Positions 1 through 21,900 of a DNA stretch of 36,601 nt are shown here, one piece after another (within the stretch, counting starts at the first letter, position 1; each line of letters begins with the position of its first letter). This DNA comes from a virus. The notes beneath the pieces were generated by a model. It was not told the DNA's origin and did not search any database. It saw only the letters and a list, made by a program, of their open reading frames with translations. The stretch lies in the IMG/VR virus record IMGVR_UViG_3300025669_000013, one strand, 5' to 3'. A program made the translations under genes and the position numbers.

Positions 1-127
1 ATCTCTTGCCCGTAGCTGTCTTTGTTGAAATTTATCATATTAGTACCCTTTCTTTGTTTTTTTCTTGATCATAACCGGTTTTTTTACGCCTTTCTTGATA
101 GTCACTTTGCTTCCGTCTGGTTTTTTG
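1..127. repeat. Terminal direct repeat, identical to 36475-36601. The contig closes on itself, giving a unit genome of 36474 bp.
   Basis: Both ends were read base by base: atctcttgcccgtagctg...ccgtctggttttttg occurs at both. The flanking bases differ (g at 36474, a at 128). Confidence 0.95.
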
Positions 128-228
128 ATCTTGATTGTTTTAGACTTGGCTTTTGATTTTATAACTAAAGTCTTATCCTTGCTTGCTTTTTTCTTTGGCA
201 TTTTTAGAACCTTTGAATTCAATTTCAA
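40..228 (-). CDS. Small, extremely lysine-rich basic protein (62 aa; alternative start MPKKK at 201). Function unknown.
   Basis: It is the only ORF covering 40-172 in a tightly packed genome. About 40 percent of residues are Lys and there is no Cys. AAAGG lies upstream of the ATG at 201. Confidence 0.45.
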   Translation of the reverse strand: MKLNSKVLKMPKKKASKDKTLVIKSKAKSKTIKIKKPDGSKVTIKKGVKKPVMIKKKTKKGY

Positions 229-532
229 CCAGTTTTAAGCGGTTTAATTCGTCTATAACACTATCGAGTTTTTTATTGATGTTGGATATATCTTTTTGGT
301 AGGTTTTTGAAAGGTGATAAAAATCTTTTTCAATTTTGGCGTTGAATACGCCCTGCGTTGCTATTACATTGTCATAGTGTTCCCGCCTTACTTCATATGA
401 GTCTGTATGCTTCTTTGAAGCGTCAACCGCACTCATATAGCTCTGACACTCCATTGCAATTCCAACTATGAATATTAATATTATAATACCAACACCATTT
501 GGAATCCATTTCCCTTTGATAGCATCAATCAT
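173..532 (-). CDS. Membrane protein with one N-terminal TM helix and a coiled-coil tail; putative holin or i-spanin-like lysis protein (119 aa from the ATG at 532).
   Basis: TM segment GVGIIILIFIVGIAM is followed by a charged helical region. The gene lies immediately downstream of the endolysin and overlaps it by 8 nt. Position 556 in the ORF track is a TTG, so the ATG at 532 is preferred. Confidence 0.5.
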   Translation of the reverse strand: MIDAIKGKWIPNGVGIIILIFIVGIAMECQSYMSAVDASKKHTDSYEVRREHYDNVIATQGVFNAKIEKDFYHLSKTYQKDISNINKKLDSVIDELNRLKLVEIEFKGSKNAKEKSKQG

Positions 533-941
533 TGATTTTCTCAACAATATTAACAAGCCTCTGCGCTCTTTTCCCCACCTGTCTGAACCATCGAGAATCT
601 TTCATCTCATCTGCAGCAGTTTGCCAGTCTCTTTTATTAAATGCGGCAAGGGCTTTTTTGAAACCCTTTAACCGATTGATACCGAGATTGTAACACATGT
701 TTATCAACACTTCCTGGACCGGGTCCGGCATGTTTTCAAACCAATCGAAAGTGTCATATAGGTCTATTACACAGATATCGACAAGCCTCTCAAGTACATA
801 TTCCGCACAATCTTCACTGATTCCGATATCTTCAATGTTCCAGCCGTACCCGATTGTTTGTTTACCCGCTGAACATTTATAAAGATGAGTTCTAAATCCT
901 TCGTCTTCTTTCAGTTGATCAATTGCATTCTGCTTTATCAT
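525..941 (-). CDS. Endolysin, T4-lysozyme-like muramidase (glycoside hydrolase family 24).
   Basis: The N-terminal motif LKEDEGFRTHLYKCSAGKQTIGYGWN matches the GH24 pattern E-G-x(6-8)-Y-x-D-x-x-G-x-x-TIGxG. Length is 138 aa and an ATG at 941 was confirmed. Confidence 0.85.
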   Translation of the reverse strand: MIKQNAIDQLKEDEGFRTHLYKCSAGKQTIGYGWNIEDIGISEDCAEYVLERLVDICVIDLYDTFDWFENMPDPVQEVLINMCYNLGINRLKGFKKALAAFNKRDWQTAADEMKDSRWFRQVGKRAQRLVNIVEKIND

Positions 942-978
942 CGCATAACCTTTGATAGAGTTTACCGCTTATGATTGG

Positions 979-1007
979 ATTTTATAGTGGTTTTACTTAT
1001 TTGTCAA
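979..1007 (-). promoter_or_regulatory. Sigma70-like promoter upstream of the endolysin gene.
   Basis: On the minus strand, TTGACA (1007-1002) is followed by a 17-nt spacer and TAAAAT (984-979). It lies in the 76-nt gap between 1018 and 941. Confidence 0.5.
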
Positions 1008-1017
1008 ATTTTGTATT

Positions 1018-1446
1018 TTATTCATTGTTTGAAAACTCAAACCCTTTTACAACAGGCCTCCATCTTATTCGCTTAAGAACGCTTTTCATAACTTTAATAT
1101 CAAAATCATTGATATTTTCGGCTTTTGGTCTTTCGATTGTAATTGGAATAGTACCTTTTTTAAATGGTGAATAAACTTCAAAATTCATTTCATCACTTAC
1201 AGACTCCGGCCCGTTTAATGCTTCAGACATGCAATCTACTAATCCATATGGAATATCTGTTTCATTTTTTTCTGGCTTTTCGATTAATTTTCCGGCCTTG
1301 TATTTTTTAATCCAGGTGTAAAGAGAGACATCAGAAACACCCATATCTTTTGATGACCTAAAAATTGAAATCCCTTTAATTTGTGCATGAAGCGCTTTCC
1401 CGCACATCTCTTTTTTCTCTGCAATCGTGTATTTTTTATAAGTCAT
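1018..1446 (-). CDS. Helix-turn-helix DNA-binding protein with an IS3-OrfA/terminase-small-like HTH (142 aa from the ATG at 1446).
   Basis: MTYKKYTIAEKKEMCGKALHAQIKGISIFRSSKDMGVSDVSLYTWIKKYK fits the Y-T-x-E-x-K...G-x-S...GVS-x-x-TLY-x-W-x-K HTH pattern. The longer ORF to 1647 overlaps the upstream gene. Confidence 0.5.
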   Translation of the reverse strand: MTYKKYTIAEKKEMCGKALHAQIKGISIFRSSKDMGVSDVSLYTWIKKYKAGKLIEKPEKNETDIPYGLVDCMSEALNGPESVSDEMNFEVYSPFKKGTIPITIERPKAENINDFDIKVMKSVLKRIRWRPVVKGFEFSNNE

Positions 1447-1867
1447 TTTCTGTTTTCCATTCAGTTCTTTTAAGTTTCGGCGGTGCATATTCAATTTGAT
1501 AATCTCTGAGAAGTTGTGCCATATCTTCACACGGCGAGATACATTCAAAGCCAACACTATTAAGGTTGAGATATATTTCACCGCATTTTTCACATTGATA
1601 AACAGGTGATATTTTGATTGTTGCCTCTTCCATGCAATCCCAATCAACCCCGGCTATCCTTGACTCGATTTCGTTGTATGGGTATCTTGCCCGCGGAAAT
1701 TCGACACAAATATCACCAAAACTTATCATCTCATTGCAACTCACACAACGTTTTGATATCCATTTTTTAAATATTTGGAAGTCTGTTTCTTTTCCAGTCC
1801 AGAAATCAAATTGCCATTGCCCTGGTTCTGGATCATATTCATAATCACAACTACATCCTAAAGGCAT
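1436..1867 (-). CDS. Cysteine-rich hypothetical protein, possibly zinc-binding.
   Basis: 143-aa ORF with CxxC pairs (CVSCNE, CEKCGE) and a strong SD (AAAGGGGGAATCATG). Confidence 0.6.
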   Translation of the reverse strand: MPLGCSCDYEYDPEPGQWQFDFWTGKETDFQIFKKWISKRCVSCNEMISFGDICVEFPRARYPYNEIESRIAGVDWDCMEEATIKISPVYQCEKCGEIYLNLNSVGFECISPCEDMAQLLRDYQIEYAPPKLKRTEWKTENDL

Positions 1868-2031
1868 GATTCCCCCTTTTTCGGTTGATATGGGTACCTC
1901 TCAATCGCTTCAGTTAAAGTCATAGGAAGTAAAAATTCTTTCCCGGAAAAGACATGCTTGACCCGGGGTTTCTGTTTTCTTTTTGCGCCGGGTAGGAAAC
2001 CGACTATTGCTATTGTTTGATTTTGTTTCAT
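1858..2031 (-). CDS. Hypothetical protein (57 aa from the ATG at 2031).
   Basis: The ATG at 2031 lies 4 nt after the upstream stop at 2036. There are no recognisable motifs. Confidence 0.4.
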   Translation of the reverse strand: MKQNQTIAIVGFLPGAKRKQKPRVKHVFSGKEFLLPMTLTEAIERYPYQPKKGESCL

Positions 2032-2035
2032 AATA

Positions 2036-2428
2036 TCACCATTTAAAAGTTCCAATTTTAAAAATAAATTCATCCAGATTATCAATAAGCCAGTATTGCC
2101 CGCCTGCCTCGATTACTTCTTGTTCACGGTCTTTTTGGTCCTGACTTTGTTTACCGCCCGGCTTTTTGAATTCCACTTCAATATAAAATCCATGAAAGCA
2201 GAGTACAGTGTCAGCTTTGCCCTTTCTTTCACTTACTTTCGCCTTTATCCACGTTTTACCTTTCTTTCTGCCGGTCGTGCTGGTTTTTGTGATCAGGCAA
2301 CTAGGGACGTTTTCAGCGTATTCAATGCAGTCCTTTTCTATGTCATTTTCTGTCGGCTCTTCAACATAGCAGAGTTTACAGATTTGATTCGGCCCGCAGC
2401 TGCATGTTGTTTTTATGTGATTTTTCAT
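2036..2428 (-). CDS. VRR-NUC / PD-(D/E)xK family nuclease.
   Basis: [45 protein letters not shown] fits the VRR-NUC core D...E-x-K...G-x-x-S-x-x-Q...G. The N-terminal region is Cys-rich. Confidence 0.6.
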
Positions 2429-3039
2429 TTTAATGATCTTGAATTAGTCAAATGCTTAGAAATTGAAATAATAATATTCTTTTCACGTTTCCAAAATTCC
2501 AGCGATCTGTAATCGTCCATTCCAAATATCCTATCGTTATCAAAAGATTCCCATTCTTTGCAATAATGGGCTTCACATCCTATTTTTATAATTGAGCCAA
2601 AAAATAAACAGTAATAATCTGAGCCTTGATAATATGAGAACTTTTTTGATTTTATTTTTAATCCTTCTTTCAAATCAGCTCCGTACAAATCAGCTCCGTA
2701 CAAATTAGCTCCGTACAAATCAGCTCCGCTCAAATTAGCTCCGCACAAATTAGCTCCGCTCAAATTAGCTCCGCACAAATTAGCTCCGCACAAATTAGCT
2801 CCGCTCAAATCAGCTCTGTACAAATTAGCTCCGCTCAAATTAGCTCTGTACAAATCAGCTCCGCACAAATTAGCTCTGTACAAATCAGCTCCGCTCAAAT
2901 TAGCTCTGCTCAAATTAGCTCTGTACAAATTAGCTCCGTACAAATTAGCTCTGCTCAAATCAGCTCTGTAACCTCGCTCTTTTCCTAAAACCCACATTTT
3001 ATGGAGTTTTAAAATTTCTTTTAATTTATCTTTATCCAT
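2425..3039 (-). CDS. Pentapeptide-repeat protein: 20 consecutive [YSC][GR]A[ND]L repeats plus an unrelated C-terminal domain of about 80 aa.
   Basis: The translation reads [15 protein letters not shown] ... YGADL, the canonical A(D/N)LXX pentapeptide-repeat pattern. Confidence 0.9.
2671..2970. repeat. Tandem array of 20 x 15 nt (caaatYagctcYg + ta/ct/ca), the coding repeat of the pentapeptide protein.
   Basis: Counted unit by unit. All 20 units are in phase and 11 of the 15 positions are invariant. Confidence 0.95.
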
Positions 3040-3043
3040 TTTT

Positions 3044-3112
3044 CATAATCTCCTTCCAATTTTATCCCACGGCCCCCGATTTACAGAGGACCGTGTGGAG
3101 AATTTTGGTTAA
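3044..3112 (-). promoter_or_regulatory. Copy A of a 69-nt intergenic direct repeat containing a GC-rich hairpin and the SD AAGGAGATT.
   Basis: 62 of 69 positions are identical to 3955-4023, with no indels. It spans from the stop of the upstream gene to the SD of the downstream gene. Confidence 0.8.
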
Positions 3113-3957
3113 AATCCGCAAAAACCTGAATTACATGGAAGTGTTTCTCCCCCAGCCCATAATTCAAGTTGTAGATTATCCCTGTTTTCTTTTGCTTCTT
3201 TAATTTTCCTCATTGCTTCAGGCAATTTGTACTTCCCCTTATCAGCCAGTCCCCATTTGACAACCTCTTCTATCCCTATTGCTCCCATGTGGCGGTATGG
3301 TCTAAACATTACTCTCGGTTTATTGTTTCTTGTAAATCCCATTGATTTCTCAATCTCTGAAATATATTTGATTCTTTCCGGATATTCAGCCAGGCGAATA
3401 AAATCAGACCGGTTAGAACATACACAAGGGAAACATTCCATTGAGCTGTGTGGTAATATTTCCAATTCTGTTTGATTTATTAGCTCGTTCCTTTGTTCAG
3501 CAGTATAATCAACCAAAGGACAGTACAGATCCCTTCCCCCATGCCTTTCAGACTGCTCAATAAATGCAGGAGCATGTTTCCGGTTTTGACTCTCTTCCCT
3601 TCTTATTCCAGTATAGCAGTCCGCTTCTAATTCCGGATCTATTTCCAACATAAATTCTCTTGCTGGTCTGACTTTCAGCTCTTCAGTGCAAAATTGCATT
3701 TTACTTGCTGGCATTGGCCACCCTTTTTTTCTTCTTACGAGATTTTCCATGCCTTCAGAATCAATTATGCGGAATTCAAGTCCTTTTACTTGTGCATAAA
3801 TCTTAACAAGATTCACTCTTTTATGCCAATCAGGATGGCTCCATCCCGTATTTGAATATAGTATAATATTTTTATCGGCAGGTTTATTGTTAATAACCCA
3901 TTGCATAAGTGCCACTGAATCATTGCCACAACTTGAAAAAATAATATTCGTGTTCAT
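3109..3957 (-). CDS. PAPS reductase / DndC-like PP-loop ATP-pyrophosphatase family protein.
   Basis: The N-terminal FSSCGNDSVAL is a variant of the SGGxDS PP-loop. GIRREESQNR and the Cys-containing MECFPCVC segment are typical of the PAPS-reductase family. The C-terminus is CNSGFCGF. Confidence 0.8.
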   Translation of the reverse strand: MNTNIIFSSCGNDSVALMQWVINNKPADKNIILYSNTGWSHPDWHKRVNLVKIYAQVKGLEFRIIDSEGMENLVRRKKGWPMPASKMQFCTEELKVRPAREFMLEIDPELEADCYTGIRREESQNRKHAPAFIEQSERHGGRDLYCPLVDYTAEQRNELINQTELEILPHSSMECFPCVCSNRSDFIRLAEYPERIKYISEIEKSMGFTRNNKPRVMFRPYRHMGAIGIEEVVKWGLADKGKYKLPEAMRKIKEAKENRDNLQLELWAGGETLPCNSGFCGF

Positions 3958-4023
3958 AATCTCCTTTCAACTTTATCCCACGGCCCCCGATTTATAGAGG
4001 ACCGCAGGGAGAATTTCGGTTAA
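3955..4023 (-). promoter_or_regulatory. Copy B of the 69-nt intergenic direct repeat.
   Basis: See copy A. It occupies the whole gap between the Rha-like gene stop (4020) and the PAPS-reductase start (3957). Confidence 0.8.
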
Positions 4024-4730
4024 TTCAATTTTTTGATCAAGACTGATTCAGCATATTTCAAGACGGCTTGTTTTGCCAGAATGAAAATTTCTTTATAGTG
4101 CAGTTTATCTTCCATGCCTTGTTTTATGGTCTCATTCGCTACGTGCTCAGCCATTATCAGCATAAAAAGTTCCATTCTATCCAGTGTGTCCCTGAAGTCT
4201 GAGGGTACTTTTTCCTTATACTCGATCATCTTTAGCGCTGCATATTCCATTTTTGTGAGATTCCCATAATACCGGAATGAAGACTTTGAACCTTGATCCT
4301 CAGCATATTTGACAAATTCAGAAACGCACCCTGTAAATTCAAGTCTTGCAATTTTTCCATCTTTCCTAACTTGTTTCCAGTCTGAATCTAGGCTATTTAA
4401 TAGCGTGGCTTCCATACTATTAAAAGCCTTGATGAAATCCATTTTCCATTGTAGCGCTTTTTTACCAGTAAAACCCATTGCGAGAATAGAAAATGAATTT
4501 CTGTTCATTTCATAACTTCTAAATTCCCTACCTCTGACTTTTCTTTTTGTTTCCCTGAAGATATAAACATCATTTTTCACTCCTACATTTTCACGAGTGA
4601 GATTGCCTATTTCTTCTTTCAATTTGTCGATTGATCTCAAAACTCTGTCATGAGGTTTTTTAAACTTACCAGCAATCAAAAAGCTATCTGTCAAAACATC
4701 GCCTTTTTTAATTTTAACTAAATCCAACAT
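4020..4730 (-). CDS. Rha-family phage regulatory protein / antirepressor.
   Basis: TDSFLIAGKFKKPHDRVLRSIDKL and MGFTGKKALQWKMDFIKAFNSME match the conserved Rha domain pattern (T-D-S...F-x-K-x-H-x-x-VLR-x-I; GFTG-x-x-A...F-I-x-x-FN). Confidence 0.8.
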   Translation of the reverse strand: MLDLVKIKKGDVLTDSFLIAGKFKKPHDRVLRSIDKLKEEIGNLTRENVGVKNDVYIFRETKRKVRGREFRSYEMNRNSFSILAMGFTGKKALQWKMDFIKAFNSMEATLLNSLDSDWKQVRKDGKIARLEFTGCVSEFVKYAEDQGSKSSFRYYGNLTKMEYAALKMIEYKEKVPSDFRDTLDRMELFMLIMAEHVANETIKQGMEDKLHYKEIFILAKQAVLKYAESVLIKKLN

Positions 4731-4772
4731 TTTATACCTCTTTATGAGTTTTGTGATTGTGTCTTTAATTTG

Positions 4773-4801
4773 ATTCTACTGTTTGTATTTTGACCTGTCA
4801 A
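4773..4801 (-). promoter_or_regulatory. Sigma70-like promoter upstream of the Rha-like gene.
   Basis: On the minus strand, TTGACA (4801-4796) is followed by a 17-nt spacer and TAGAAT (4778-4773). It lies in the 84-nt gap. Confidence 0.55.
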
Positions 4802-4814
4802 GTATTATTTTGAA

Positions 4815-5009
4815 CTATTTCAAATACCCCTTAGTAACCTTCCTATGATTATCAAATAAATGCCGGACTGGAAAAACGGTTTCATTGTATTCAGCCTTTA
4901 CCAGCTCCCTAAATAAAATCGATCCGATGTGACCCTTAGCTTCATAATAGAATTTCTGAGTTGCCAGATCAAAGTATTCGTTTATTTCTGGTTGGTTTTG
5001 TGTGTTCAT
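4815..5009 (-). CDS. Hypothetical protein (64 aa).
   Basis: The ATG at 5009 is preceded by GGGTGGATAA. It overlaps the upstream ORF by 41 nt. Confidence 0.5.
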   Translation of the reverse strand: MNTQNQPEINEYFDLATQKFYYEAKGHIGSILFRELVKAEYNETVFPVRHLFDNHRKVTKGYLK

Positions 5010-5235
5010 TTATCCACCCATGCTCAAGATCAAAGAATTTTCCTTGTCTGATTCCCTCGACTGCTTCTTTTAATTGCTTTCTCATGCAGGTTTCTGGATC
5101 ACCACGCCAGAAACCAGGATAGCCGGTATACGACCACAAAATGTTTCTTGTATAACATATATTTTCATTCGGAAAGTATTGGTTTACTATATCCCAGACT
5201 GTTTTCAATTCTACCAATGATTTATTATCCATCAT
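4969..5235 (-). CDS. Hypothetical protein (88 aa).
   Basis: The ORF has an SD (GGGGAAAAGATGATG). There are no recognisable motifs. Confidence 0.55.
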   Translation of the reverse strand: MMDNKSLVELKTVWDIVNQYFPNENICYTRNILWSYTGYPGFWRGDPETCMRKQLKEAVEGIRQGKFFDLEHGWINEHTKPTRNKRIL

Positions 5236-5294
5236 CTTTTCCCCGCAAATTTATTAGGTTTCCAATTACGTTCTTTGACCGGTGGCTGTTGAAA

Positions 5295-5501
5295 TTATGC
5301 TAGTGACGTTATATATTCAAATGCGTGTTTAAAGTCCCTCTCATCTCCTTCCATCTCGCAGCCAAAACATTTAAACCTTTGATTCTTTTCCGACACTGTG
5401 AAAGAGGGTGTTTTCTCTTCATGAAATGGACACAGCCCAATATAATTCTTTCCAGATTTTTCCAATTTTACATTCTTGCTAATTGTTTCAATGATTCCCA
5501 T
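5295..5501 (-). CDS. Stand-alone DnaG/T7-gp4-type primase zinc finger (CHC2), 68 aa, with no TOPRIM or RNA-polymerase domain.
   Basis: CPFHEEKTPSFTVSEKNQRFKCFGCEMEGD matches C-P-F-H-x-E-K-T-P-S-F-x-V...F-x-C-F-G-C-x-x-x-G-D. The SD is GGGGAAAACATG. Confidence 0.75.
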   Translation of the reverse strand: MGIIETISKNVKLEKSGKNYIGLCPFHEEKTPSFTVSEKNQRFKCFGCEMEGDERDFKHAFEYITSLA

Positions 5502-5509
5502 GTTTTCCC

Positions 5510-6208
5510 CTAATAATAAGGATTATTAATTCCACGAATGTCAATCCCGAACTGGATCAACATGTGTTTACTTAAACTTCTATAGTAAATATCGTCAGCC
5601 ATTCCCTTGATGAAATATACTTGTTTTAGCGAACACATAACCCCGTCTCCAGTGTTCATTATCCAATTTTCAAACTCCCTTTCATAATCTTCACTCCCTC
5701 TGCATATTCCATCTTCTGATAATTCACAAGGCAGTTTATATTTTTTGTAAAATTCACTTCCTTTTATCCTGTATACTTTCCACCCTTCTGAATTTAGTTT
5801 CTCGTCCCTTTTTCTATCTTTTTCCTCATCATGCCAGTCTTTCCCGTCGCACTCTACCGCAATTTTTAGGTGTGGATTTGCAAAATCAAGAATAAAACCC
5901 ATTGTCGGAAATTGTGGCAAAAGATTAACACCGTAGTATCTTATCAAATTCCAGCAACCGCCCTCGATTGGAGTAAACAACCTAGGCCAGTCCACAAAAT
6001 ATGGATCATACCCACAACCGGACGAATAAGCCTCAATTATATCTGGAAGATGCAAATCGTATATTTTTCTCAATTTTGTATAAATTCCCTTACCTGGCTC
6101 TAAAACATGAAAGTCCATCTTTCCGGATTTCATGTATTCAACCACTCCTTTAACACCGCCCATTTCCTCTATTATTTCACCTATATTTTTTGCTGTCATT
6201 TTAATCAT
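5510..6208 (-). CDS. DUF559 / Vsr-like PD-(D/E)xK endonuclease-domain protein (start at 6208 or 6199).
   Basis: ILDFANPHLKIAVECDGKDWHDEEKDRKRDEKLNSEGWKVYRI fits the DUF559 core D-F...[IV]-E-x-D-G-x-x-H...D-x-x-R-D-x-x-L-x-x-x-G-W-x-V-x-R. Confidence 0.65.
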   Translation of the reverse strand: MIKMTAKNIGEIIEEMGGVKGVVEYMKSGKMDFHVLEPGKGIYTKLRKIYDLHLPDIIEAYSSGCGYDPYFVDWPRLFTPIEGGCWNLIRYYGVNLLPQFPTMGFILDFANPHLKIAVECDGKDWHDEEKDRKRDEKLNSEGWKVYRIKGSEFYKKYKLPCELSEDGICRGSEDYEREFENWIMNTGDGVMCSLKQVYFIKGMADDIYYRSLSKHMLIQFGIDIRGINNPYY

Positions 6209-7586
6209 TCCAATGAGGTTTACTGTTTGCGTTGATCGGAAGCGGTATGTCATGTTGACTCAGATTACTGAATTTTGTGTACATACCCTCGAATTTTAAC
6301 TTGACCATTCCCGTCGGGCCGTTCCTGTGTTTTTTGATTAGTACCTCCGCAATCCCTCTATCAACCGTCTTTTTATTATATATTTCGTCACGGTAAATAA
6401 ACATAATAATATCAGCGTCCTGCTCAATACTCCCGGACTCTCTGAGGTCAGACAACATCGGTCTTTTATCTGATCGTTCCTCACATTTTCGGCTTAACTG
6501 AGATAGCGCTATTACTGGAACATTCAAACTTTTAGCGAGTCTTTTCGTTCGCCTACTCATATCTGCAACTTCCTGCTCCCTTTGTTTTGTGCTCTTACCT
6601 TGAACCAATTGAAGGTAGTCAATAACAATAAGCCCCAATCCTTTTTCATGCCTTCTATTCAACGCTCTTGATTCGTGTTCTATCTGGTCCATTGTACTTG
6701 ATTTTTCATCAAAATACACTGGTTTTTCTGATAGTTCTCCAGTTGACATTGCCAGTCTGTCGAAATCTTCCTGGTTGAGATTTCTGCCAGTTCTTATTTT
6801 TGTATTATCGACTTTTGAAGATGAGCTTAAAATTCTATCTCCATTCTGGTCGTTTGACATTTCCTGGGAGAATATTATTGTCGCTTTGTCTGTTTTATTT
6901 TTCTTATAGACGTTTTCAACGATATTCAAAGCTAACGCGCTTTTCCCCATCGAAGGCCTGGCAGCTATGAAAATTAGATCAGGTGCTATCAACCCGTTTA
7001 TCAACTTGTCAATGTCTGCGAATCCTGTCGGTATCCCTGTTATTTGTTCCTTGCTGTTATATCTATCCTCTATATTATTTACGCACCTTGTAAGAACTTC
7101 CTTGATATGAACAGCGTTCTCTGTGATCTTTGACTCAGATATTTTAAGAATCTTTTCCTGTGCTATTGAAAGCACTTCGTTAACGTCTTGTCCTGGATCT
7201 CTGGCAAGTCTCGTAATTTGGCTGGACTCACTGATCAATTCTCTCATAAGAGCGTGGTCTATTATTAATTTTGCATAGTAGACAATATTACCCTCAATCG
7301 GTGCGTTTGCCTCAATCTCTGCTATGTATCCTATCCCGCCGGCCTCTTCAATTTTGCTATGTGATCTCAAATTATCAGTTACCGTCATTACATCTATGGG
7401 ATAATCTTTTGAAAATAATTCACTGATTGACCTGTAAATACATTGGTGAGGTTCGCTGAAGAATGTCGATGTATCAACAATATTTATTATCTTTTCAATC
7501 TGAGAATTGTCTGAAATCATATAGCCTAGAATCGTTTGCTCCATGTCTGTATCTTGTGGAATTGATAACTCTTGATCGATTTGCAT
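6201..7586 (-). CDS. dnaB: Replicative DNA helicase, DnaB family.
   Basis: Walker A ARPSMGKSALALN, Walker B LIVIDYLQL, the ALSQLSR motif and an N-terminal DnaB-like domain are all present. Length is 461 aa. Confidence 0.92.
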   Translation of the reverse strand: MQIDQELSIPQDTDMEQTILGYMISDNSQIEKIINIVDTSTFFSEPHQCIYRSISELFSKDYPIDVMTVTDNLRSHSKIEEAGGIGYIAEIEANAPIEGNIVYYAKLIIDHALMRELISESSQITRLARDPGQDVNEVLSIAQEKILKISESKITENAVHIKEVLTRCVNNIEDRYNSKEQITGIPTGFADIDKLINGLIAPDLIFIAARPSMGKSALALNIVENVYKKNKTDKATIIFSQEMSNDQNGDRILSSSSKVDNTKIRTGRNLNQEDFDRLAMSTGELSEKPVYFDEKSSTMDQIEHESRALNRRHEKGLGLIVIDYLQLVQGKSTKQREQEVADMSRRTKRLAKSLNVPVIALSQLSRKCEERSDKRPMLSDLRESGSIEQDADIIMFIYRDEIYNKKTVDRGIAEVLIKKHRNGPTGMVKLKFEGMYTKFSNLSQHDIPLPINANSKPHWND

Positions 7587-7592
7587 GTCTCC

Positions 7593-8408
7593 CTATTGGT
7601 TTATTAATGCTTGTGTTGCTTCATATTCTTCGTTCGCCGCTGACATCCCATCATCTTGATTCGTTCCAGTATTGTCAGCTTTACAAATAAAGTCTTTCCA
7701 AAAATTCTTTTTAAGAAATCTTTCAGCATCCTTTGGCAGTCCATTGCATTCAAGTGAATAATTCTCTGTTGCTATTTTTAGATCATCCCATTCTATCTTG
7801 AGTATCTTTTCAAACAAAGGAGATGCTAAACTTTTGCCTACTTTTCTGCCGTTTCTTTTTGGATAACTTTCAAACCATCTTTCAAAAGCAGGTGTATATA
7901 TTTCTTTCTTTTTCCTTTCCTTTCCTTTCCTTTGTGTACTTTTGCCTTCAATTTCTGGATTAATGTCTACATTTAACGGATAAATGTTTACATTTACTTT
8001 GTCTAGGTTGTATAATTCTTTTACATCAATAATGGTGTATTCCTTTATAAACGTGACTTCCTTCCGCCTTTCGGTTGCTGAACAATAATTAGATTGTATT
8101 CTTGATGATGTTAGTATTTCGTACTTATCATAAAGTTTGTTATCAAAAAGACCCTTATCAATGCAATCATTAAGAATTAAAATATACTCATCTATTTTTA
8201 TATTGTTCTCATCAGAAAATAGAATGTTGAAATTTTCGTCTATTTTGAGGTAATACCCACAATCCCTGTAAGTTTCTTCCAATAGTCTTAAATAAACCGC
8301 ATACCCGATTAGGCCATGTTTTGCTTTAACCAATTTAATTTTTATATCCTGTAACATATCAACATCATGACTAAAATAGTCAATTCCTACTTTTGGTTTT
8401 CTTGACAT
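7593..8408 (-). CDS. Replication initiation / replisome-organiser protein with a DUF4373 (Lin1244-like) N-terminal domain.
   Basis: GIDYFSHDVDMLQDIKIKLVKAKHGLIGYAVYLRLLEETYR fits the DUF4373 N-terminus. The C-terminal FERWFESYPKRNGRKVGK motif is common in phage DnaD-like proteins. The ATG at 8408 has the SD AGGGAAATTA. Confidence 0.6.
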   Translation of the reverse strand: MSRKPKVGIDYFSHDVDMLQDIKIKLVKAKHGLIGYAVYLRLLEETYRDCGYYLKIDENFNILFSDENNIKIDEYILILNDCIDKGLFDNKLYDKYEILTSSRIQSNYCSATERRKEVTFIKEYTIIDVKELYNLDKVNVNIYPLNVDINPEIEGKSTQRKGKERKKKEIYTPAFERWFESYPKRNGRKVGKSLASPLFEKILKIEWDDLKIATENYSLECNGLPKDAERFLKKNFWKDFICKADNTGTNQDDGMSAANEEYEATQALINQ

Positions 8409-8916
8409 TAATTTCCCTATGCTCATTTTTATGACATTCAATGCAAAGTGTAATGCCATTATTAATATCTGTTCTTAATTTTTTATGTGTTTTGTATGGC
8501 TTTATATGATGCGCATTTAATTCTGATCCTCTTTTTTGACAGTGCTGGCAAGTAAAATTATCTCTTTTGAAGACTGATTTCCTAAATGCCTTGTATTCAG
8601 GGCTGTTTCTTCTGTCTGTCTTCCCATTCTTTTCTCGCTTTAATTTAGCCTTGTATCTTTTTTCTGAATAGGCGTGAGGTATGCCATCTACTATCTCAGC
8701 CCAATGCGCATCTCCAAGAAAATACAAAAAACTTTTAGCATATTGAAACCCATCAATAATACCTATAATTAAAGCACACTCACCGCAATAATTCTTTTCC
8801 TCAACATCAATTCTCGGCCATGAGCAACACATTATTTCACCGCAATTGTCGCATTTAAACTCATACATTTTTTGCTGGTATCCGCCGTTATCAACTTCAT
8901 ATTCTCTATGCAACAT
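8380..8916 (-). CDS. HNH endonuclease.
   Basis: FTCQHCQKRGSELNAHHIKPYKTHKKLRTDINNGITLCIECHKNEH is a CxxC...HH...N...CxxCH HNH core. Confidence 0.8.
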   Translation of the reverse strand: MLHREYEVDNGGYQQKMYEFKCDNCGEIMCCSWPRIDVEEKNYCGECALIIGIIDGFQYAKSFLYFLGDAHWAEIVDGIPHAYSEKRYKAKLKREKNGKTDRRNSPEYKAFRKSVFKRDNFTCQHCQKRGSELNAHHIKPYKTHKKLRTDINNGITLCIECHKNEHREINVKKTKSRN

Positions 8917-18933: not shown

Positions 18934-21900
18934 TATGTTTTCCTGTTAATGAGCTCAAGTGCTTTCCGTTTATCGGCTGCTGAGTCCTTGCGCTGTAATT
19001 GGTGTTTTGTTCTGAGAACATTCACAAGCTGACTGATGTATTTTTGCTCGTTTCCTTTTCCTTTTGCGATTTTAATCAATAAATTCCTGACCGCTTTTGA
19101 TTCATAAGCCCTGGCCGCTGCGCCTATTGTCAGAGCAGGGACTACAAATTTAGCGCCACCTGCCACGGCTCCCCCGCCAAGCCCTAACGCTGCTATATTC
19201 TGGTAATTCTGCATTCCGGTTGGAGGCGATACACTCGCTATTTCAGCCCTTCTAGTTGATTTCAGTGCTTTTACAAGACCATCCAACACTTTTTTATCTT
19301 CACCTTTGAAAAATACACCTGTTGATTTTTCCATATTTTTCAAAGCTGTCTGGAATTTTGCGGTTGATAACTCATCAATTCCGCCCGCTTTTGCCATTGC
19401 TTCCTGCCACATCGCAACCCTCGCCCTTGCTTTACCTTGTGGGCTTAGCGACTTGTAGAGCCTGTTTATATCGCTTGGCCTACGGCTGAATAATAATTTT
19501 CTGACTTCTTCTGGGCTTGATTTTCCGTTTTTTATCGAAGCTTTCAAGGCAGATATATCAAGTTCTCTGATATTCTTTGATAATCTCTGATTTGCTGTTT
19601 TCCATTTATCGTAGTCCCTGCGTTTTCCGTTGGTTTTGATAAACTCGCCCATGTCCTCATTGACCGCTTTGTATATCTTTTTGTTTACTTTATCGGCCTG
19701 ACTTTTCATGGCAGCAAAATTTTCACTTCCAAGTTTTTCACCGAATACTTTCCGATTATCTTCAACCTGTGCCAGTGTTTTTTCAGTGAATGAAGTTCTG
19801 GAATTCTCCAGGGCATCGATCAAAGGTTCAACATCTTTGTTATCCAGGGCTGTTAATCTTGTGATCTCTTTGTCTATTGCTGCTGTGGTTTTGTTTATTG
19901 GTACTGTGTTTCTTATTGGAGTAGTTGAGATTTGGTCTGTATTTCTTACAAGAACTTCCTTACCCCTTTTTACGGTATCATATCCCATGTCCCACGCTGC
20001 ATCTGGGTCTAATGTTTCAGCTATAAAAGATAGGTCTTTATCCGATGCTTTCGACAAGTCATCAACCCCCCATGCTATCACAAAATTTCCATTTTCATCA
20101 GCGTCAACTTTTGCCTTGGCCCTGTCATGCCTTAAACCTTTTGTTTCTTCTTTTTTCTTATTGAAGAATTTTAAAGCTTCGTCTTTTTCAGACTGTTTAA
20201 ATGTTTTAGATTGACTAGCAAATCCAGGTCTGTCTGTGTCCGGTATTGTTTTATTAAACCTCTCAACAATCTTTTTTCTGTCTGCTTTAGTTAAATTATC
20301 CCAATCTAAAACATTTCCCTCGTCTAAATATGCTTCTTTTATCTTATCACCGTAAACTTTTGCCTTCCCTTTTGTTTTTCCAAAGTATGTTCCTGTCCCT
20401 AATTTACCCGGAAGCATTTCTTTTGATTCAAACACATTAAAATCTTTAGACGTACCATGAAATACTTTTTCAGAATCCTCAGAAAGTCTCTCAATAACAT
20501 CAACTTTCTGTTTATTGTATTTCTGAATATCAGCACCACGTTTTTTCAGCAGGTCTTTCATGACATCATCTGAAGCCTGAGCTGTTTCAGTTGCTCCGTA
20601 TTCTCTTAAAACTCCCCTGATTGCTTCGACTCTTGCCTCTTGCTGTTCAACTCTCTTGCCACCGGTTCCGATTATCGGCATTCTCTCTGTCCCGATTTGT
20701 ACGGCCTTTTGAGTCGGTGTTTTTGGTGGAAATACATCTGAAGTCAAAGGTTCAATATCAAATCTTTTCGCAGTTTCAACAGTTTTTTCAAGTTCTGTTT
20801 TGATCGGTGTAGTTTTGATTATTGGTACTGTGTTAGCTTTTGCGCCCCCCGCTACCTGGAATTTATCAGGTAGAACTTTCCACTCTCTCGTCACCCTGTC
20901 AACTGCTTCTTTATAGGTACTAAATTGACTATCACCAGAGGGGATGCCGTCTTCACCTATTATACTTAACTGCCACCGCCCCGGCTCTTTTGCTGATTTG
21001 TGTACAAATAGTTCTATTCCGCTATTTGTTTTTGCTTTAAAAGGTGCATCTGGGTTGCCCTTGATAAATTTATCTGTTATACCCCTTCTTGTTTTTACAT
21101 TTTTTAATGATGCGTCAACAAAATCCTTGCCGGACAATTTTTCTAAATCTATCAATTGTTCTGTTTTGATTGGGACTGGACCCCTTGTTTTTATCCCTGC
21201 TTTGGCCAGTGCTCTCCTGATTGGTTCCGGTGCTGATTTTCCTTTAAAAAATCCTCTCAATGCTGCAATTCCCTTTCCTGCTGCTACTCCGCCGCCCTCG
21301 AATGTCATTGCTAAGGGTATTTCCATTGCATCAAACTTACCGCCGGCCATTTCTTGGGTTGCTTCTATCCCAAATTGCGTTGCACCCGCTCCGCCGACTC
21401 TTTGTAGACCGGTTCCTCTTGCCCCTGCCGCAAAAAGGAGCATTGTAGTTGCTGATCTCAGTAAATCTTCCTCTGTCCTAAATCCTGGCTTGATTGCGTA
21501 TTGGTTACCGTCCATTCCGGATGTAAAAACGTAATTTCCTTTTGAATCTTTGGCGATGTCTACATCTGGATTTTGCTTTTTGATTACCTGGGAGATTTCA
21601 TCTGGACCTGCAGCCATAGTTCCAACCAGGCTTTTAGCACCTCTCAAACTCAAATTATTCATTTCAGGCATTCTGACCCATGAAGGAAGTGCTTCCGTTT
21701 CTGGTACCCTTCTGCCTGCGCCTGTGATACCTTCTTTGACCCCTTCGAAGAAAGAAACATCTTCTGATTCAGCGGTGATAACAGACCCGGATCTTAAATC
21801 AGCAATTAAGTTTTTCATGCCTTCATCTGACATTTGACCATCCCAGAATCGTTTCATAACTACGTCAGGAACTTCGGCCGGCTTTGTTTCTTCCATATGT

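Follow-up and report, generated by a model that had tools for sequence, protein, structure and literature searches.

A phage pentapeptide-repeat gene with a uniform 15-nucleotide array is a basic member of a widespread family with rapid repeat turnover

The locus and its parts

The DNA analysed here is a stretch of 36,601 nucleotides (nt) from a virus (IMG/VR record IMGVR_UViG_3300025669_000013), which we refer to in its whole length as the window, and the element under study is a gene on its minus strand that encodes a protein made largely of pentapeptide repeats. A first-pass annotation, prepared from the sequence alone, had drawn attention to this gene on account of the near-perfect regularity of its repeat array. 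The gene and its parts are as follows:

2425..3039, minus strand: complete phage pentapeptide-repeat gene, 204 amino acids (aa), with an ATG start and a stop codon at 2425-2427 (list of open reading frames, ORFs)
2971..3039, minus strand: N-terminal cap, residues 1-23, with a predicted helix at residues 3-17; the helix motif is common to the relatives
2671..2970, minus strand: array of 20 x 15 nt, encoding 20 pentapeptides of the form (Y/S/C)(R/G)A(N/D)L (unit table; Tandem Repeats Finder, TRF)
2671..2970, minus strand: the same array at protein level, predicted as a right-handed quadrilateral beta-helix of five coils (beta bridges of an AlphaFold2 model; Protein Data Bank, PDB, fold search)
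2836..2880, minus strand: units 7-9, the site of a deletion relative to contig L088, which lacks 30 of these 45 nt (blastn)
2428..2670, minus strand: C-terminal domain, residues 124-204, predicted as a four-strand beta meander plus a long helix (AlphaFold2, predicted local distance difference test, pLDDT, 86.8)

The array at the nucleotide level

Read in the coding frame, the interval 2671..2970 contained exactly 20 in-frame units of 15 nt, for which TRF reported a period of 15, 19.7 copies, a score of 396 and zero indels. Eleven of the 15 columns were invariant, with every alanine specified by GCT (20/20) and every leucine by TTG (20/20), and the phasing and uniformity originally described for the array were thus found to be exact. 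The variable columns were 1 (T/A), 2 (A/G), 4 (A/G) and 10 (G/A), corresponding to the codon sets TAC/AGC/TGC (Y/S/C), AGA/GGA (R/G) and AAT/GAT (N/D). No synonymous variants were present, and the 20 units represented 9 of the 12 possible combinations of the variable sites. The longest exact internal repeats measured 38 and 35 nt, at offsets of 30 and 45.

If the protein sequence is taken as given and codons are drawn at the frequencies seen in 24 other ORFs of the window, such uniformity has a probability of about 1e-48.6. Codon bias was considered as the cause and ruled out, since the codons found in the array are used by this phage only in a minority of cases; across the same 24 ORFs, GCT accounts for 26 % of its synonymous family, TTG for 21 %, AGC for 14 % and TAC for 35 %. 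Additionally, mixed codons are used in the non-repeat parts of the repeat gene itself. For the array alone, the proportion of synonymous differences (pS) was 0 and that of non-synonymous differences (pN) was 0.18. The earlier statement that variation always changes the amino acid is therefore true of this array, but its statistical significance emerges only when related arrays are pooled, as described below.

Predicted fold and domain organization

The protein matched Pfam PF00805 (Pentapeptide) with an E-value of 1.4e-36 (124 bits against a cut-off of 20.2), and its 20 units (Y/S/C)(R/G)A(N/D)L display the tandem A(D/N)LXX pattern by which pentapeptide-repeat proteins are recognized. Such repeats form the Rfr fold, a right-handed quadrilateral beta-helix with four repeats per coil, in which the side chains of Ala (i-2) and Leu (i) point inward, whilst positions i-1, i+1 and i+2 face outward. 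A 20-sequence alignment of relatives served as input for an AlphaFold2 model, which had a mean pLDDT of 90.2 and comprised a helix at residues 3-17, a solenoid at 26-124 with one beta bridge per five residues, a four-strand meander at 135-159 and a helix at 168-202. The top matches of this model in a PDB fold search were exclusively pentapeptide-repeat solenoids (E down to 9e-10). We are confident in the predicted quadrilateral beta-helix, which agrees with the fold proposed in the first-pass annotation. Because Rfr geometry places i-1, i+1 and i+2 outward, the variation within the array falls solely at outward-facing positions, again as had been suggested; no periodicity of four units, as would mark a face of the helix, was evident in the surface residues of the array.

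The best PDB match was the designed consensus solenoid 'Beta1' (PDB 4yc5, 4ycq and 4yei), with 58-60 % identity and a root-mean-square deviation (rmsd) of 0.8-1.5 A over about 101-104 residues, and the array in the window is as idealized as this engineered consensus repeat. Beta1, however, is synthetic, has designed caps and no biological function, and is without the N- and C-terminal domains of the phage protein.

Both ends of the protein carry conserved motifs. The N-terminal 'L..IL..H..WL' motif was conserved in the alignment and in the viral loci, and the C-terminal domain is characterized by a conserved G-C-x-x-H...W...MD...FW motif, for which the 20-relative alignment showed G154, C155 and W163 to be invariant and H158, I171 and M174 to be near-invariant. 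Searches with the C-terminal domain returned zero matches in Pfam (E<=10), zero in NCBIfam (E<=1) and none in the PDB fold search (best E=1.7), and in BFVD its matches were confined to the C-terminal ends of other pentapeptide proteins of phages. Using phmmer over 1.84 billion representative proteins, we recovered the domain in 335 clusters at E<=1e-3, always in a C-terminal position. The N-terminal part was mostly a pentapeptide array in a sample of 40 of these clusters, with a hexapeptide-like solenoid in six; the proteins in which the domain follows such six-residue solenoid-like repeats (e.g. ARVYGNARVFDNAQVYDN, CEGDLDCEGYLDCKGDLD) are P0124, P0132, P0137, P0155, P0162 and P0169. In P0130 and P0151 the whole module of array plus domain occurs twice in tandem.

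A widespread phage family

A tblastn search against phage genomes matched 483 records, in 136 of which the match covered at least 80 % of the protein, and coverage reached 93-95 % for the named phage proteins. Matches were also obtained to PHROG 7713 (E=3.6e-49), 31567 (E=4.7e-21) and 37032 (E=1.9e-13), the latter two covering the C-terminal domain. The three-part architecture was present in ST104 orf19, Barba gp043 and RapA gp021, as well as in 28 viral loci. Using PHROGs, alignment and tblastn, we could thus place the protein in a phage family with an N-terminal helix, an array and a G-C-x-x-H...W domain, with whose members it also has in common a uniform array, a private codon set and a copy number that changes in 15-nt steps. 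Among viral contigs, identity to it did not exceed about 78 %, and this over only part of its length. The single near-identical relative was an 860-nt ENA contig (L088; ERZ27316532), and an orthologue in NCBI assembly GCA_024449895.1 (locus L089, protein P0002) was 70 % identical. The arrays of relatives ranged from 10 to 37 units. We conclude that the gene adds a new and unusually basic member to a widespread, uncharacterized class of phage pentapeptide-repeat proteins. The rarity that the first-pass annotation implied did not survive this comparison, as the same architecture and array uniformity are the norm among phage pentapeptide-repeat proteins.

ST104 orf19 (YP_006374.1; from a P22-like phage, compare orf232 of phages L and ST64T) is 48 % identical to the window protein over residues 1-190, and has the same 'L..IL..H..W' helix, A(N/D)LXX array and G-C-x-x-H...W...MD...F domain. 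Its array likewise consists of equally uniform 15-nt units, with Y/R/C, G/D and N/D variation. It differs in its codon set (GGT-GCC-AAC-CTG versus GCT-AAT-TTG in the window), in its Salmonella host and in the charge of the protein, which is acidic where that of the window is basic. The genomic setting differs as well: orf19 is located in the early left operon between ral and orf78/17/c3/kil/erf/abc, and thus between ral and gene 17 rather than between genes for a 3'-phosphoadenosine-5'-phosphosulphate (PAPS) reductase and an endonuclease. Barba gp043 'pentapeptide' (QCQ58576.1) and RapA gp021 show the architecture and C-terminal motif of the window protein at 47-54 % identity, and their arrays are uniform, but they belong to different types of phage, Barba being a myovirus and RapA a Rauchvirus. 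Furthermore, the N-terminal region of RapA gp021 is longer and its repeats are clearly organized in higher-order blocks, whilst Barba has slight synonymous variation at the array edges. The gene of these relatives is placed in early, DNA-metabolism or host-takeover modules of unrelated phages (ST104, RapA and L089); RapA gp021 adjoins DNA polymerase I, and the L089 gene follows RecT.

Phage proteins with other C-terminal domains (DUF5758, PF19062) resemble the window protein in having an N-terminal helix and a uniform, copy-variable array, and their arrays share the C/R/Y/S, G/D and N/D surface alphabet with arrays of the kind found in the window. In place of G-C-x-x-H...W, the C-termini of these other types read 'GWKKC...RKCRA' (PF19062), 'AGCFxG..eEF' or 'SCWPLWCG'. 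Arrays at loci L004-L083 were rich in outward-facing cysteine, with up to 22 Cys units in one protein, and Cys, Arg and Tyr were by far the commonest residues at i+1. The window protein also gave a weak NCBIfam match to the model 'Cys-every-fifth RiPP peptide CefA'.

Concerted evolution of the repeat units

An array undergoes concerted evolution when its units are closer to each other than to the orthologous units of other arrays. The consensus units of the window and four relatives are:

Window: GCT-(A/G)AT-TTG-(TAC/AGC/TGC)-(GGA/AGA)
Barba: GCC-(A/G)AC-CTG-AG(A/C)-GGT
ST104: GGT-GCC-(A/G)AC-CTG-(TAC/CGC/TGC)
RapA: GGG-GCC-AAC-CTG-(GAC/TAC), or ACG-CGG
L089: GCA-(A/G)AC-CTT-(TAC/TGC/TCC/TCA)-(GGG/AGG/ATG)

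Each array in the homologues examined was equally uniform and had a private codon set. Between L089 and the window a synonymous difference exists in every codon slot (serine, for example, is encoded by AGC in the window but by TCC/TCA in L089), and both arrays are uniform internally. Because the two codon sets differ throughout, the units within one array must trace back to a common ancestor more recent than the one that links them to the 'orthologous' units elsewhere; as judged by comparison of sequences, this shows concerted evolution by unit turnover. In 76 viral-contig arrays, units matched their own consensus with an identity of 0.76-0.95, and the window array (0.89) lies in the middle of this distribution.

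Gain and loss of units in 15-nt steps

When contig L088 was aligned by blastn to positions 2253..3142 of the window, we observed 0 mismatches and a single 30-nt gap, corresponding to the loss of two units between two identical YRANL units; the L088 protein (P0001) is accordingly 194 aa long. Barba isolates with flanks more than 99.6 % identical had arrays of 22, 20, 19 or 10 units, and in the Barba isolate collection the span of the locus was shorter by 15 to 180 nt, e.g. by about 15, 30, 45, 60, 105 and 120 nt. Copies in P22-like prophages with nearly identical flanks contained 14 to 33 units, and ST104 and locus L020, whose flanks are 100 % identical (75 + 210 nt), had unalignable arrays of 21 and 17 units, respectively. 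Judged by eye from the unit strings, L012 resembles L005 with an 11-unit internal block duplication. Similar changes are on record: between phages L and ST64T, whose sequences agree to more than 99.9 %, there are only two differing sites, one of which is a 15-bp, single-repeat deletion in orf232 of the early left operon (PMC8022706), and the Caulobacter phages RW and GB2A have a 375 bp difference in the pentapeptide gene (PMC11053796). The L088 gap, the Barba length alleles and these two published cases bear out the prediction that the array would be prone to slippage in 15-nt steps, and very fast turnover of units accounts for the uniformity of the array.

A number of linear Barba drafts start or end inside the pentapeptide gene (MT497228, MT497229, MT497247, MT497267, MT497271 and others), which suggests that these draft assemblies broke at the array. 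We also found that Barba array DNA matches Bordetella phage vB_BaM-IFTN6 (OM293955.1, 32182-32463) with 83 % nucleotide identity over the array only; by this match, arrays of different phages are similar enough to recombine.

Selection on the outward-facing positions

For a pooled test, one array was taken per distinct consensus DNA unit (44 arrays), edge units were dropped and variant codon types were counted. Arrays with a distinct consensus were treated as independent, which is only approximately true, and on this basis the test returned 26 synonymous and 248 non-synonymous variant codons, counted as types and not as events, where 83 synonymous ones were expected if every non-stop mutation were equally acceptable (binomial p=7e-17). 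The test is conservative, because changes of the inward-facing Ala and Leu were counted as possible. In most arrays, pN was well above pS.

The polymorphic columns were constant across arrays, whatever the underlying consensus DNA. Polymorphism was found at the first base of the i+1 codon in 43/43 arrays and at its second base in 31/43, at the first and second bases of the i+2 codon in 26/43 and 31/43, respectively, and at the first base of the N/D codon in 41/43, whilst third codon positions were polymorphic in 4-14 of 43. The residue sets at these positions, N/D at i-1, C/R/Y/S at i+1 and G/D/R at i+2, recurred through different codons. A sequence-specific mutational hot spot was ruled out, given that the same residue sets arise from different codons. 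Across the family, the statistics show that the simplest account is selection keeping amino acid heterogeneity against homogenization, and the pattern points to diversifying selection on five surface-facing columns. Recent expansion, concerted evolution or selection on outward-facing residues had been put forward at the outset to account for the array, and this view gains support from the codon contrast between L089 and the window together with the pooled non-synonymous excess.

A proposed role for the array, and its rivals

Taking these results jointly, we consider it reasonably probable that the gene represents an uncharacterized phage early-region family in which fast unit turnover and selection on the surface act upon a rod that binds a host factor. 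Under this proposal, the N-terminal helix would cap the pentapeptide beta-helix, and a small conserved C-terminal domain would follow it. As the comparisons above show, replication slippage and unequal or inter-phage recombination add or drop 15-nt units, and such turnover re-derives the whole array from few units, such that synonymous differences never accumulate and each lineage fixes its own codons. On the statistics of the whole family, selection at the same time maintains the differences at i-1 (N/D), i+1 (Y/S/C/R) and i+2 (G/R/D), and as homogenization is opposed by selection at these outward positions, unit shuffling quickly yields new surface patterns. The solenoid surface may serve as a fast-evolving protein-binding or decoy face towards a variable host factor, e.g. 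a defence or DNA-processing protein, whilst the C-terminal domain might provide a constant function, possibly dimerization through its long helix. We infer such a face from the early-module context, the evolutionary behaviour of the array and a hint concerning host range, namely that two independently host-range-bred Staphylococcus phages each gained a substitution in a pentapeptide-repeat gene, the subfamily of which may differ (PMC8065394).

Several observations weigh against this proposal. The binding target in particular is purely inferred. Taken alone, the window array, with 0 synonymous and 4 non-synonymous sites, is insignificant by simple site counting (about p=0.15-0.2), and the pooled test carries the approximate independence and the counting of types noted above. 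The gene neighbourhood around the repeat gene showed no conservation among the relatives examined, and PADLOC at E<=0.01 found no defence-family match for the repeat protein, nor for its endonuclease-like neighbour. One Barba isolate has a frameshifted copy, and in Barba19A (MK719730.1/NC_048190.1) only the flanks are kept and the whole pentapeptide gene is missing; the repeat gene is thus dispensable in at least one Barba phage, and both cases fit a weakly selected accessory gene. Finally, the C-terminal domain is also joined to hexapeptide-like repeats, so the solenoid may be a generic rod.

This last point leads to the main rival, in which the solenoid is a rigid spacer of adjustable length, the function resides in the C-terminal domain and the surface variation is tolerated noise. 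Consistent with it, the C-terminal domain is the conserved element, occurring in 335 clusters and always at the C-terminus; it is joined to arrays of any length and, in some proteins, to hexapeptide-like repeats, and copy number changes freely. A neutral surface, however, predicts synonymous variants to equal or exceed non-synonymous ones, which is the reverse of the pooled counts, and the recurrence of the N/D, C/R/Y/S and G/D/R sets via different codons in independent lineages argues that surface chemistry is selected. As such, we regard a mere spacer as unlikely.

The first-pass annotation had raised the possibility of a different function, that of a B-DNA mimic of the Qnr/MfpA/AlbG type whose acidic surface would bind gyrase or topoisomerase IV, or restriction- or BREX-type DNA-sensing defences. 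The window protein has the same overall fold as these proteins, since Qnr, MfpA, AlbG and McbG also build right-handed quadrilateral beta-helices from A(D/N)LXX repeats and have a C-terminal helix, and MfpA, QnrB1 and AlbG are among its structural matches (E=1e-4 to 5e-6). The gene is in a DNA-metabolism or early module, and many relatives have acidic arrays (mean net charge -5). The Qnr and MfpA matches, however, have an rmsd of 8-12 A and 15-27 % identity, far poorer than generic solenoids, and the NCBIfam scores fall well below their cut-offs (Qnr, 37.1 bits versus 240; MfpA, 32 versus 360; QnrB, 28 versus 460). As calculated from sequence, the window protein is basic, with an isoelectric point (pI) of 8.96 and a net charge of about +7 (N-terminus +4, array -1, C-terminus +4); the arginines of the array are confined to units 1-10, and aspartates occur in both halves. 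Across the family, the array charge ranges from -18 to +9, and an acidic surface is therefore not conserved. Rods of 10-37 units, varying even among near-identical phages, are awkward for a shape-matched fit to the gyrase DNA gate, and the predicted long helix at 168-202 is part of a C-terminal domain unrelated to those of Qnr and MfpA. The sequences of Qnr, MfpA, AlbG and McbG are also irregular and old, in contrast to the near-perfect array of the window with its quick turnover. In addition, the bacterial pentapeptide proteins McbG and QnrB failed to inhibit BREX (PMC7261183). By the criterion that the first-pass annotation had set, an acidic DNA-like surface, the mimic is weakened; it gains no support from these results, and we consider it distinctly improbable.

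A very recent neutral expansion from one unit, in which the four non-synonymous sites are chance mutations that were copied along, would agree with the insignificance of the site counts in the window array, and recent block duplication is indeed indicated by the 38- and 35-nt exact repeats described above. Nevertheless, most combinations of the variable sites are present and at intermediate frequencies, L089 reaches the same Y/C/S, G/R and N/D alphabet through different codons, and the non-synonymous excess affects the same columns family-wide, making a wholly neutral origin very unlikely.

An assembly artefact (a collapsed or mis-joined repeat) or targeted hypermutation, e.g. by a diversity-generating retroelement, is extremely unlikely: although tandem repeats are notorious for causing assembly errors and several Barba drafts break inside the gene, the longest exact repeat of 38 nt is resolvable by longer reads or k-mers and would not be collapsed in a k=141 assembly, the independent assembly L088 agrees with zero mismatches and one clean two-unit gap, the ORF is intact with a confidently predicted fold, and isolate genomes have the same kind of array, so that the collapse considered in the first-pass annotation can be set aside. 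The variable codons do resemble the NNC codons of adenine mutagenesis, but invariant adenines adjoin variable ones. No reverse transcriptase was found among the larger ORFs scanned with Pfam or PHROGs, no YxDD motif was present in open frames of at least 200 aa, and the unit occurs nowhere else in the 36.6-kb window; a diversity-generating retroelement within the window was rejected on the grounds of the missing reverse transcriptase and template copy and of the invariant adenines.

Returning to the proposed host-factor-binding rod, a more general and rather doubtful extension of it is that phage pentapeptide arrays are self-diversifying binding scaffolds, in which slippage and recombination would shuffle a minimal alphabet of residues typical of recognition surfaces (Y/S/C/R at i+1, G/R/D at i+2 and N/D at i-1) into new solenoid faces. 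If this were true, new faces could be generated within a few generations without a dedicated mutagenic enzyme, which would allow phages to track host defence sensors and would make the arrays a repeat-based counterpart of diversity-generating retroelements. Variation that is amino-acid-changing and concentrated at the surface is the pattern expected in an arms race with the host. In the literature searched, we found no functional study of any phage pentapeptide-repeat protein, nor any description of hypervariable arrays with private codons and a non-synonymous excess. Hundreds of phage genomes contain annotated pentapeptide-repeat genes (the hosts include Mycobacterium, Staphylococcus, Listeria, Salmonella, Rheinheimera, Caulobacter and others), which are hot spots of change and often the sole indel between otherwise identical phages. 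Array changes in 15-nt steps thus matter for genome assembly and for the comparison of phage isolates, and P22-like orf232, the Barba isolates and the Barba19A deletion offer a natural allele series with which a binding partner could be sought.

Neighbouring genes and other features of the window

The repeat gene is flanked by two genes on the same strand:

2036..2428, minus strand: endonuclease-like gene, downstream neighbour (PHROG 93 'endonuclease', E=3.5e-12)
3109..3957, minus strand: PAPS-reductase-domain gene, upstream neighbour (Pfam PF01507, PAPS_reduct, E=1.2e-9; PHROG 424, E=1.7e-33)

These correspond to the nuclease and the DndC-like gene named in the first-pass annotation, with the qualification that, on the DndC-like side, it is the PAPS_reduct match that identifies the protein, the PADLOC matches to SspD, DndC and BrxP being weak (E about 1e-7). 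The ATG of the endonuclease-like gene overlaps the TGA of the repeat gene as ATGA (2425-2428), and L088 has the identical junction; by reason of this overlap, the two genes are probably co-translated or translationally coupled. Among the loci of relatives, an endonuclease gene in this position was seen again in contig L088 alone, the one identical to the window. A PAPS-reductase gene, at 26 % identity, borders pentapeptide genes of a different type (DUF5758) in three related loci, namely L056 (about 6465-7151), L079 (about 3974-4750) and L080 (about 5617-6393). This adjacency may reflect chance or a conserved module order.

The 36.6-kb window as a whole is that of a phage, with genes for portal, major head protein, large terminase, head closure, ejection proteins, DnaB, Rha and lysozyme, and has a GC content of 36-46 %. 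A megablast search with positions 1-8000 of the window against 50,697 phage records gave zero matches, and the phage is therefore not a described one. At 5295-5501 on the minus strand we noted a lone 68-aa ORF with the primase-type zinc-finger motif CPFHEEKTPSF...CFGC. It lies downstream of an endonuclease-like ORF of the DUF559/REase_MTES_1575 type (5510-6253, minus strand), which in turn overlaps the end of the DnaB helicase gene (6201-7586, minus strand), and it may represent a primase gene that a mobile endonuclease has split or truncated. Lastly, TRF reported two 21-nt tandem duplications of 1.9 copies each, at 7957-7996 and 19869-19908, the former near the start of a Lin1244_N-domain gene (7593-8459) in the replication region.

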